Source: Candidatus Versatilivorator sp.
GTDB lineage: Bacteria; Acidobacteriota; Terriglobia; Versatilivoradales; Versatilivoraceae
Direction: 5' to 3'
DNA: 64,000 nt
Assembly: GCA_965262635.1 (NCBI GenBank)
Contig: OZ253547.1
Coordinates: forward strand, 4,889,020 to 4,953,019
Shown here piece after piece: positions 61,333-61,405 of this stretch; the stretch's first letter is position 1; each line of letters starts with the position of its first letter. Both the position numbers and the translations under genes were made by a program. The notes beneath the pieces were generated by a model. The model did no database searches. It saw only the letters and a list, made by a program, of their open reading frames with translations, and was not told where the DNA came from.

Positions 61333-61405
61333 TGGACCTGTCGGGATTCGAACCCGGTTCCCCCGATTTAGAGTCGGGAGCATCTCCCAATAATGCTTCA
61401 GGCCC
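61333..61405 (-). tRNA. tRNA with CUA anticodon (amber suppressor-type) carrying G3:U70 and A73 (alanine identity set)
   Basis: Hand-folded 73-nt cloverleaf GGGCCUG-AA-GCAU-UAUUGGGAG-AUGC-U-CCCGA-CUCUAAA-UCGGG-GGAA-CCGGG-UUCGAAU-CCCGA-CAGGUCC-A. Perfect 7-bp acceptor (with G3:U70), 4-bp D stem and 5-bp anticodon stem. U33 and A37 flank C34-U35-A36. GG in the D loop, UUCGAAU T loop. Oddities: A8/U14, C49:A65 mismatch, no encoded CCA. Confidence 0.7.

Follow-up and report, generated by a model that had tools for sequence, protein, structure and literature searches.

A transposon-borne tRNA operon with a predicted alanine-accepting nonsense suppressor in an acidobacterial genome

The stretch of contig OZ253547.1 analysed here (the window; 64,000 nucleotides, numbered from its first letter) contains on its minus strand a tRNA gene, tRNA-2, whose anticodon is CUA and whose body carries the identity elements for alanyl-tRNA synthetase (AlaRS). 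It is the second gene of a small operon, which also comprises a tRNA with cysteine identity and an enlarged anticodon loop (tRNA-1) and a gene for a protein with a predicted winged-helix domain (ORF148), and which is carried by a transposon of the IS1595 family. To our knowledge, natural nonsense suppressors are rare in bacteria that use the standard code, and laboratory mutants make up most of the known cases. In the present operon, strong purifying selection has kept a suppressor-type tRNA with alanine identity, which is paired with a second non-canonical tRNA and a putative regulator.

Genes and signals of the tRNA operon

For comparison we used the window together with five further loci (L011 to L015), the last of which has no tRNA-2. 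The order promoter, leader hairpin, tRNA-1, tRNA-2, ORF148 is conserved, and in the window the operon is made up as follows, in the direction of its transcription.

61580 to 61607, minus strand: putative operon promoter; extended -10 element TGTTATCAT at 61580-61588, weak -35 element TTCAAG at 61602-61607, 16-nt spacer
61503 to 61532, minus strand: leader hairpin with a 12-bp stem, immediately 5' of tRNA-1 (inverted-repeat pair, fold)
61425 to 61497, minus strand: tRNA-1, cysteine identity, 8-nt anticodon loop CCUGCAAA (Rfam, 46.8 bits)
61405 to 61333, minus strand: tRNA-2, 73 nt, 7/5 cloverleaf, CUA anticodon, no encoded CCA (ARAGORN, Rfam, fold)
61274 to 61287, minus strand: spacer motif GGTGTCAACCCATA between tRNA-2 and ORF148, invariant in five loci (alignment)
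60792 to 61238, minus strand: ORF148, 148 amino acids (aa), third gene of the operon, TAG stop, convergent with the transposase gene and overlapping it by 4 nt

The original prediction for this DNA, made from its letters alone, had described a 73-nt cloverleaf with the anticodon loop C-U-CUA-A-A at 61333-61405. The coordinates are exact, and the gene runs on the minus strand, from 61405 to 61333. ARAGORN calls the anticodon cta in the 64-kb window, the match to the Rfam model RF00005 scores 48.4 bits and thus lies above the gathering score of 29 (E = 2.7e-07 for a search of all 64 kb; model positions 1-71 of 71), and the cloverleaf is the minimum-free-energy (MFE) fold. The RNA reads GGGCCUG AA GCAU UAUUGGGAG AUGC U CCCGA CUCUAAA UCGGG GGAA CCGGG UUCGAAU CCCGA CAGGUCC A. 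It shows the features of a canonical elongator tRNA, namely a 7-bp acceptor stem, T and anticodon stems of 5 bp each, a 7-nt anticodon loop with U33, G18G19 and the T-loop UUCGAAU, along with a variable loop of 4 nt. Both irregularities that had been pointed out beforehand are borne out by the sequence, the second also by Infernal: position 8 is an A with U14, in place of the usual U8/A14, and C49:A65 is the sole mismatch of the molecule.

The acceptor stem consists of G1:C72, G2:C71, G3:U70, C4:G69, C5:G68, U6:A67 and G7:C66, followed by the discriminator A73. The proposed AlaRS identity set of G3:U70 and A73 can therefore be read directly from the gene, and it is completed by G2:C71 and by GGG at positions 18-20 (G20; Infernal alignment). 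AlaRS recognises G3:U70 and ignores the anticodon. The alanine anticodon NGC is found neither in tRNA-2 (CUA) nor in its relatives, which also have UUA or UAA. With C32, U33, C34, U35, A36, A37 and A38, the anticodon loop is complementary to UAG and has the U33 and the purine 37 of a decoding-competent loop. tRNA-2 is thus a genuine tRNA gene of class I, intact and equipped with both a CUA anticodon and a full alanine identity set; on these features it should accept alanine and read UAG.

Located 19 bases upstream of tRNA-2 on the same strand, tRNA-1 has the cysteine identity features U73, GCA and A13:A22, which are invariant among the copies compared (window 61425-61497, minus strand; L012 5740-5814; L013 5743-5817; L014 1314-1387; L015 2822-2896). 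These five copies share 72-80% identity and contain six base pairs with two-sided compensatory changes. The anticodon loop is enlarged in every copy, to 8 nt (CCUGCAAA, CUUGCAAA, UUUGCAAG) or to 9 nt (GCUCGCAAC, in L014), the extra base being placed 5' of GCA. A normal 7-nt loop was ruled out, since several copies would lose base pairs in other registers. The bases UGCA in the loop (CGCA in L014) could serve as a quadruplet anticodon.

MiaA modifies A37 in tRNAs with A36-A37-A38, and a miaA gene is present in the window (19823-20809). It clusters with hflX at 19823-22756 on the plus strand, and its product would modify A37 of both element tRNAs, each of which has the A36-A37-A38 context.

Regarding the control elements, the extended -10 pattern TGnTA..AT is shared by the window, L012, L013, L014 and L015, where it keeps a constant distance of about 75 nt upstream from tRNA-1. 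A consensus scan did not flag this site, and it is its conservation that suggests a promoter. The leader hairpin (-24.7 kcal/mol, z = -4.4) keeps its stem in five loci with three compensatory pairs. The spacer motif, to which L015 has the similar counterpart AGTGTCAACAC, is possibly an operator or an element of the untranslated region (UTR).

ORF148 begins with an ATG preceded by the ribosome-binding site GGGAGG, both conserved, and the identity of its codon positions ranks 2>1>3, a pattern of purifying selection. Its AlphaFold2 (AF2) model (pLDDT 74) has a long helix at its N-terminus and a winged-helix domain at its C-terminus, for which the best Foldseek matches are Rok, the winged-helix domain of MCM8 and the delta subunit of RNA polymerase, all of them weak (best E = 0.0098). 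From this fold it is a reasonable inference that ORF148 is a DNA-binding regulator. PADLOC, Pfam and NCBIfam contain no family that matches it. Residues ~88-129 show a weak likeness over 42 aa to cysteine synthase and cystathionine beta-lyase (PDB 6vju, E = 0.0065; NCBIfam cysK, E = 0.05), which is probably spurious, though curious beside a Cys-type tRNA.

Carrier transposon and related loci

Between ~59.4 and 62.9 kb of the window the GC content falls from 0.66-0.75 to 0.44-0.55. This region holds a 3,135-bp transposon of the IS1595 family (59765-62899), which apart from the operon consists of the following features.

59757 to 59764, no strand: target-site duplication, left copy ATTCCAAA (sequence reading; host open reading frame restored on excision)
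59765 to 59789, plus strand: left inverted repeat (IRL) GGGAATTATATACGAAAGTAGCCAA, 25 bp, exact reverse complement of 62875-62899
59796 to 59823, plus strand: transposase promoter-like site, TTGACA-16-TACAAT, TG-extended, 11/12 matches (consensus scan only)
59848 to 60795, plus strand: DDE transposase of the IS1595 family, 315 aa, intact, TAA stop (Pfam, NCBIfam)
61646 to 61807, plus strand: ORF53, small, basic, divergent from the tRNA operon, putatively coding; start region conserved in L012
61924 to 62811, plus strand: cargo gene with LAPAL motif, PDC-S42, 295 aa (database gene call), TAG stop (PADLOC, NCBIfam)
62875 to 62899, minus strand: right inverted repeat (IRR), perfect 25-bp partner of IRL
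62900 to 62907, no strand: target-site duplication, right copy ATTCCAAA, 8-bp direct repeat (sequence reading)

The transposase matches the Pfam families DDE_Tnp_IS1595 (7.4e-39) and Zn_ribbon_IS1595 (6.4e-06) as well as NCBIfam transpos_IS1595 (4.8e-53). When the element and one copy of ATTCCAAA are removed in silico, an uninterrupted host open reading frame (ORF) is obtained (...GCYVWNGSLSPDATLTWTGG...). Because of the inverted repeats, the 8-bp duplication and the restored host ORF, tRNA-2 lies inside a cleanly and freshly inserted transposon, and the proposal that it rides an IS-type element is thus upheld. It is no lone passenger, being gene 2 of an operon with a Cys-type tRNA and a putative winged-helix protein. 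The interrupted host gene (62908-63385 plus 59434-59764, minus strand) has a signal-peptide-like N-terminus and was cut within a motif of the type CYVWN...TLTWTG.

The LAPAL cargo protein belongs to the candidate defence family PDC-S42 (PADLOC, 9e-47; NCBIfam NF053583, 1.5e-57), whose members in many bacteria are often passengers of IS1595 and IS256-type (Transposase_mut) elements. The minimal relative, IRL-Tnp-LAPAL-IRR, is 2,185 bp long (L002/L003). In ten loci with LAPAL/PDC-S42 homologues (L001-L010) no tRNA lies next to the gene, by which a general association of these genes with tRNAs was ruled out. The AF2 model of the LAPAL protein (pLDDT 81) has weak OB-fold-like similarity only (SSB, IF1). 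Beyond the TAG stop of this gene, the frame stays open for 94 codons, through IRR into host DNA. Exact-protein look-ups of the LAPAL and transposase ORFs of the window gave no match, probably owing to start-codon choice or to exclusion of the source genome.

Among 5.8 billion proteins only four word-indexed homologues of ORF148 were found (in L011, L012, L013 and L014), and at all four the order tRNA-1, tRNA-2, ORF148 is repeated. A full HMMER search yields 316 cluster representatives at E<=1e-3, 67 of them at E<=1e-10, and one is from Bryobacterales. Inverted repeats related to IRL and IRR occur in L002/L003, L011, L012 and L014. The last three of these share the IS1595-type ends with the element of the window and differ in their other cargo: in L011 an nSTAND1 ATPase gene separates IRL from the transposase, while L012 carries an ORF of 92 aa and L014 two small ORFs. 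Of the transposase of L013 a remnant of the 3' end is left. The L015 module (P0245, ~50% identity to ORF148; L015 2740-3435) has the promoter, the hairpin, tRNA-1 and the UTR motif, lacks both tRNA-2 and an IS, and is flanked by a UvrD/GajB-like helicase gene and a Shedu SduA gene. Since this module exists without tRNA-2 and IS, tRNA-1 and ORF148 would form the older core, to which tRNA-2 was added in the IS-borne subfamily, and L015 suggests that an older tRNA-plus-winged-helix module lives in defence islands.

The window and L011 form a mosaic (window 59848-61497 against L011 1-1705): their identity is ~85% over the first (5') two-thirds of the transposase gene and ~99.5% from ~60400 through tRNA-1. 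Judging from this mosaicism and the nSTAND1 gene of L011, the tRNA/ORF148 cassette appears to be exchanged between IS variants. Two of the few differences within the near-identical stretch fall in tRNA-2, each breaking a base pair. Across the family the neighbourhoods of the module contain PDC-S42, PDC-S27 (1e-152), Shedu (1.6e-153), HigB, the S subunit of a type I restriction-modification system, nSTAND1 and a UvrD/GajB-like helicase, the link of ORF148 to defence being one of neighbourhood association only.

No part of the module is more conserved than tRNA-2, whose copies in the window and four other loci share 86-97% identity, far above chance, compared to 43-70% at the third codon positions of ORF148 and 55-84% in the spacers, statistics that are thin with six loci known. 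G3:U70, A73, G2:C71, A8:U14, GGG18-20, C32, U33, A36, A37 and A38 are invariant in all five copies, the stems show no covariation at all, and the Rfam scores lie between 47 and 55 bits across all tRNA copies. This alignment argues that tRNA-2 is under strong purifying selection. The anticodon, in contrast, varies: it is CUA in the window, L011 and L014, UUA in L013 and UAA in L012. The gene of the window is of the amber type as predicted, whereas its family is not fixed for this anticodon, and on account of this variation amber is to be seen as but one state of an adaptor of the nonsense type. Stop-codon anticodons (CUA, CUA, UUA) occur in all three of the copies with a cloverleaf fold. In L012, a contig of 4x coverage, the T-stem is weakened and unformed in the MFE fold, and the gene adjoins a degraded transposase. 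L011 has A1:C72, a change that may be an error in a contig of 2x coverage. All other copies have G65 (C49:G65), so that A65 of the window is derived.

A pattern of the D-arm and anticodon stem of tRNA-2 with free anticodon has no match in 185,579 GTDB species genomes, in JGI metagenomes or in viral contigs. This indicates that tRNA-2 was not copied from a canonical host tRNA and that its family is rare. Gene conversion from a host tRNA was thereby ruled out as the source of its conservation, no such tRNA existing in the 185,579 species genomes. A profile search with ORF148 gave no confirmed relative in genome and metagenome contigs, and neither ORF148 alone nor the tRNA-1 pattern was found in viral contigs. 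By BLAST, the tRNA has generic tRNA arm matches only among phages and nothing close in E. coli genomes, and the element nothing close among plasmids.

Possible functions of the tRNA pair

The explanation that best fits these data, and which we hold with moderate confidence, is that tRNA-2 accepts alanine and suppresses nonsense codons under regulation, to the benefit of the mobile element and without a change of the host code. The operon would be transcribed from its own extended -10 promoter and the tRNAs matured by RNase P, RNase Z and the CCA-adding enzyme, and the MiaA encoded in the window could modify A37 of tRNA-2 in its A36-A37-A38 context. Being blind to the anticodon, the AlaRS of the host would alanylate tRNA-2. 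The resulting Ala-tRNA(CUA) would compete with release factor 1 (RF1) at UAG, and the sister copy with UUA would act at UAA and UAG. Among 31 long host ORFs outside the element the stops are TGA in 16, TAG in 12 and TAA in 3. hflX is one of the genes that end with TAG, and its product of 431 aa has the same length as its homologues, in line with the standard-code host that had been assumed. Since ~39% of the host stops are TAG, the activity of the suppressor is expected to be low or conditional. Candidate restraints are the leader hairpin, the winged-helix protein as a repressor and the derived C49:A65 of the window copy; taken together, the T-stem mismatch, the hairpin and the putative regulator point to restrained activity.

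The payoff to the mobile element might be a potentially toxic mistranslation cassette, which stabilises the element or acts in conflicts between phage and host. A benefit through expression of the element's own genes is unlikely, because none of them needs read-through and the ORF148 stop does not co-vary with the anticodon. A need for UAG read-through or for a frameshift at UGCA was ruled out for the element genes, which are intact single ORFs with stops uncorrelated with the anticodon. A role of the module in conflict or addiction is the most plausible, if speculative, one. A bolder and rather doubtful version would have the IS carry a recoding cassette, in which tRNA-2 inserts alanine at stops, tRNA-1 with UGCA (CGCA in L014) causes quadruplet frameshifting at UGCA/UGCG, and the leader as an attenuator and the winged-helix protein as a repressor keep both in check. 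Derepression upon phage infection or loss of the element would then kill or arrest the cell by proteome-wide read-through and frameshifting, and the cassette would amount to a toxin/abortive-infection or addiction module that is built on tRNAs and spreads by transposition.

Several points weigh against a suppressor function. Alanine insertion at UAG is a prediction from the sequence. With 12 of the 31 long host ORFs ending in TAG, an efficient suppressor should harm the host. The stems are weakened by the derived C49:A65 in the window and by A1:C72 in L011, its closest relative (2x coverage). The transposase, ORF148 and LAPAL genes are intact single ORFs, and no element gene was found that needs UAG read-through; the pairs of ORF148 stop and anticodon are uncorrelated (TAG/CUA, TAA/CUA, TAG/UUA, TAA/UAA). 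The L012 copy has the Leu-type anticodon UAA, only six loci are known, so that the conservation statistics are thin, and the repressor role of ORF148 is based on weak fold matches (best E = 0.0098). Moreover, irregular acidobacterial tRNAs have been described that are charged and yet unused in translation (Mukai et al. 2017, PMC5389517).

This last precedent leads to the main rival, according to which the two tRNAs are made and perhaps aminoacylated, and are not used by the ribosome but act as regulatory, decoy or toxin/antitoxin RNAs, or as aminoacyl donors together with ORF148. Decoding would be disabled in tRNA-1 by the loop of 8-9 nt and irrelevant in tRNA-2, whose anticodon would drift among stop and rare codons while the synthetase identity is kept. 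We consider this possible, though on balance unlikely. It is in accordance with the variable anticodon of tRNA-2 on a nearly invariant body and with tRNA-1, which keeps U73 and GCA in spite of a loop that is always enlarged. The older core of tRNA-1 and ORF148 without tRNA-2 (L015), the defence-gene neighbours (PDC-S42, PDC-S27, Shedu SduA, UvrD/GajB-like helicase, nSTAND1, HigB) and the absence of covariation from the stems of tRNA-2, which suggests sequence-specific recognition, also speak for it, as do the irregular tRNAs charged by HisRS yet not decoding, for which roles in toxin-antitoxin systems or transposons were proposed (Mukai et al. 2017, PMC5389517). On the other hand, positions 32, 33, 37 and 38, A36, G18G19 and the T-loop of tRNA-2 are canonical and invariant, although not required off the ribosome. 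The anticodons are single-step neighbours, nonsense in every well-folded copy and not random; an 8-nt loop is compatible with triplet decoding, as in yeast mitochondrial tRNA-Thr(UAG) (PMC7609411); and the module has no conserved partner enzyme beside it, for instance a Fem-type transferase, a cyclodipeptide synthase or a nuclease.

It is improbable that the pair provides spare, nuclease-resistant tRNAs whose altered loops survive the anticodon nucleases of host defences or toxins, as has been reported for phage tRNAs. The defence-island and toxin-antitoxin neighbourhoods would agree with such a role, and so would the Cys identity of tRNA-1 in combination with its remodelled loop, but tRNA-2 with its stop-codon anticodon does not stand in for any host tRNA, the vicinity contains no conserved anticodon nuclease, and related tRNAs were not found in phage or viral collections. 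Strongly disfavoured, and very improbable in our view, is a decaying tRNA pseudogene whose G:U pair would be accidental, whose anticodon would have mutated and which would have been carried along by the IS. C49:A65 in the window, A1:C72 in L011 and the weak T-stem next to a degraded transposase in L012 would fit decay; however, tRNA-2 is the most conserved segment while synonymous sites are near saturation, the operon position, promoter and hairpin are conserved, all copies reach 47-55 bits in Rfam, and very recent copying is contradicted by the 65-70% protein identity of ORF148.

A pyrrolysine tRNA, as labelled by ARAGORN ('tRNA-Pyl') from the anticodon alone, or a genome recoded at TAG has a negligible probability: tRNA-Pyl has a compact D-loop without G18G19, a 6-bp anticodon stem, a 3-nt variable loop and one base between acceptor and D stems, whereas tRNA-2 has G18G19, a T-psi-C loop, a 5-bp anticodon stem, two bases from acceptor to D stem and a 9-nt D-loop, and TAG ends conserved host genes at homologue length (hflX, 431 aa).

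Among known systems, Hou & Schimmel 1988 and McClain & Foss 1988 reportedly engineered alanine-inserting amber suppressors by transplanting G3:U70. tRNA-2 shares with them G3:U70, A73, CUA and an AlaRS recognition independent of the anticodon, and differs in being natural, conserved and mobile, with charging that is predicted. With the suppressor tRNAs of recoded phages it has in common the coding on a mobile element and a stop-reading anticodon. The own genes of such phages carry in-frame stops that need the suppressor tRNA, whereas no gene of the present IS has an in-frame stop; tRNA-2 is carried by an insertion sequence, and the viral and phage collections yielded no relative. Subgroups of the IS1595 family in ISfinder include elements with passenger genes, and the present element resembles them in its zinc-ribbon DDE transposase, in inverted repeats starting with GGG, in the 8-bp duplication and in having passengers. 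It departs from them in that the tRNA/ORF148 cassette is constant while the other cargo varies (LAPAL, nSTAND1, small ORFs). In the literature we found no description of tRNA genes as IS1595-family passengers and no direct precedent for PDC-S42/LAPAL or suppressor tRNAs in defence contexts. The enlarged 8-nt loop on an otherwise normal tRNA connects tRNA-1 to the frameshift-suppressor tRNAs and to yeast mitochondrial tRNA-Thr(UAG), which has an anticodon loop of 8 nt (PMC7609411); unlike these, it has its extra base 5' of GCA, and the loop reaches 9 nt in L014.

The closest relation is to the allo-tRNAs and other irregular, suppressor-like tRNAs of Acidobacteria, in which synthetase identity and anticodon have become independent of each other (Mukai et al. 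2017, Nucleic Acids Res 45:2776, PMC5389517). In that study, acidobacterial G3:U70 tRNAs with natural GCG or UUA anticodons inserted alanine at UAG in E. coli once the anticodon was changed to CUA, and Ser-identity species with UAA and GAG were toxic when induced; both results are experimental precedents in favour of the suppressor reading. Polycistrons of irregular suppressor-like tRNAs were found near toxin-antitoxin genes, and one pseudogene overlaps a transposon-related ORF (PMC5389517). The parallels comprise the phylum, the uncoupled identity including G3:U70/Ala, natural UUA (ochre), UAA (Leu) and other anticodons, the co-transcription of two or three odd tRNAs, and nearby toxin-antitoxin genes and a transposon-related ORF. 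Compared by published description, the allo-tRNAs have a 12-bp acceptor branch (8/4 or 9/3) and a long variable arm, whereas tRNA-2 has a 7/5 branch and a 4-nt variable loop (PMC5389517). Further differences are the natural CUA of tRNA-2, its Cys-type partner with an 8-nt loop, the putative winged-helix gene after the tRNAs, and a unit that is demonstrable IS1595 cargo with inverted repeats and target duplication. On these grounds the tRNA-2 family is best classed as resembling the allo-tRNAs in kind and not as a member. The earlier statement that such a tRNA would be new was therefore overstated, G3:U70 irregular suppressor-like tRNAs having been known from Acidobacteria (Mukai et al. 2017, PMC5389517). 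The present operon extends these to ordinary cloverleaves and to an active transposon. For a natural CUA on a canonical body, the partnership of an 8-nt-loop Cys tRNA with a winged-helix protein, the strong constraint and the carriage by IS1595 we found no prior description.

The active transposon moves the tRNA/ORF148 unit from genome to genome and into defence-rich neighbourhoods. If tRNA-2 decodes, regulated mistranslation could be passed on horizontally, as a trait or as a weapon. Decoding would also offer a handle on why Acidobacteria accumulate tRNAs with mismatched identity and anticodon, a question left by Mukai et al. 2017 (PMC5389517), and synthetic biology would gain an Ala-suppressor scaffold of natural origin, possibly along with a quadruplet decoder of the same origin. 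If tRNA-2 does not decode, the operon would be a clean model of how mobile elements use aminoacylatable tRNAs outside translation. The system is coherent, rare and experimentally tractable.

The host chromosome around the element

The HflX protein encoded in the window shares 86% identity with one that is named 'Acidobacteria bacterium'. An acidobacterial origin of the window is also supported by the small RNA Acido-Lenti-1, of which there are two copies ~9.8 kb apart on the plus strand (23725-23770, 45.7 bits; 33495-33540, 42.5 bits).

Directly left of the IS, a block of 73% GC encodes a hybrid sensor of 929 aa (GAF-PAS-HisKA-HATPase-receiver-Trans_reg_C; 56539-59328, plus strand), adjoined by a tyrosine integrase gene (55506-56606, minus strand), and the region has the appearance of a mosaic assembled from acquired DNA. 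The window as a whole is rich in transposons; its further mobile-element genes encode a tyrosine integrase (15111-16094) and DDE_Tnp_1 transposases (16340-17470, 17908-19077 and 43985-44980). At its left end lies a giant, adhesin-like ORF of 4,290 aa (50-12922, plus strand), which contains SWM repeats as well as fibronectin-III, cadherin and Big_5 domains and ends with a TAG stop.

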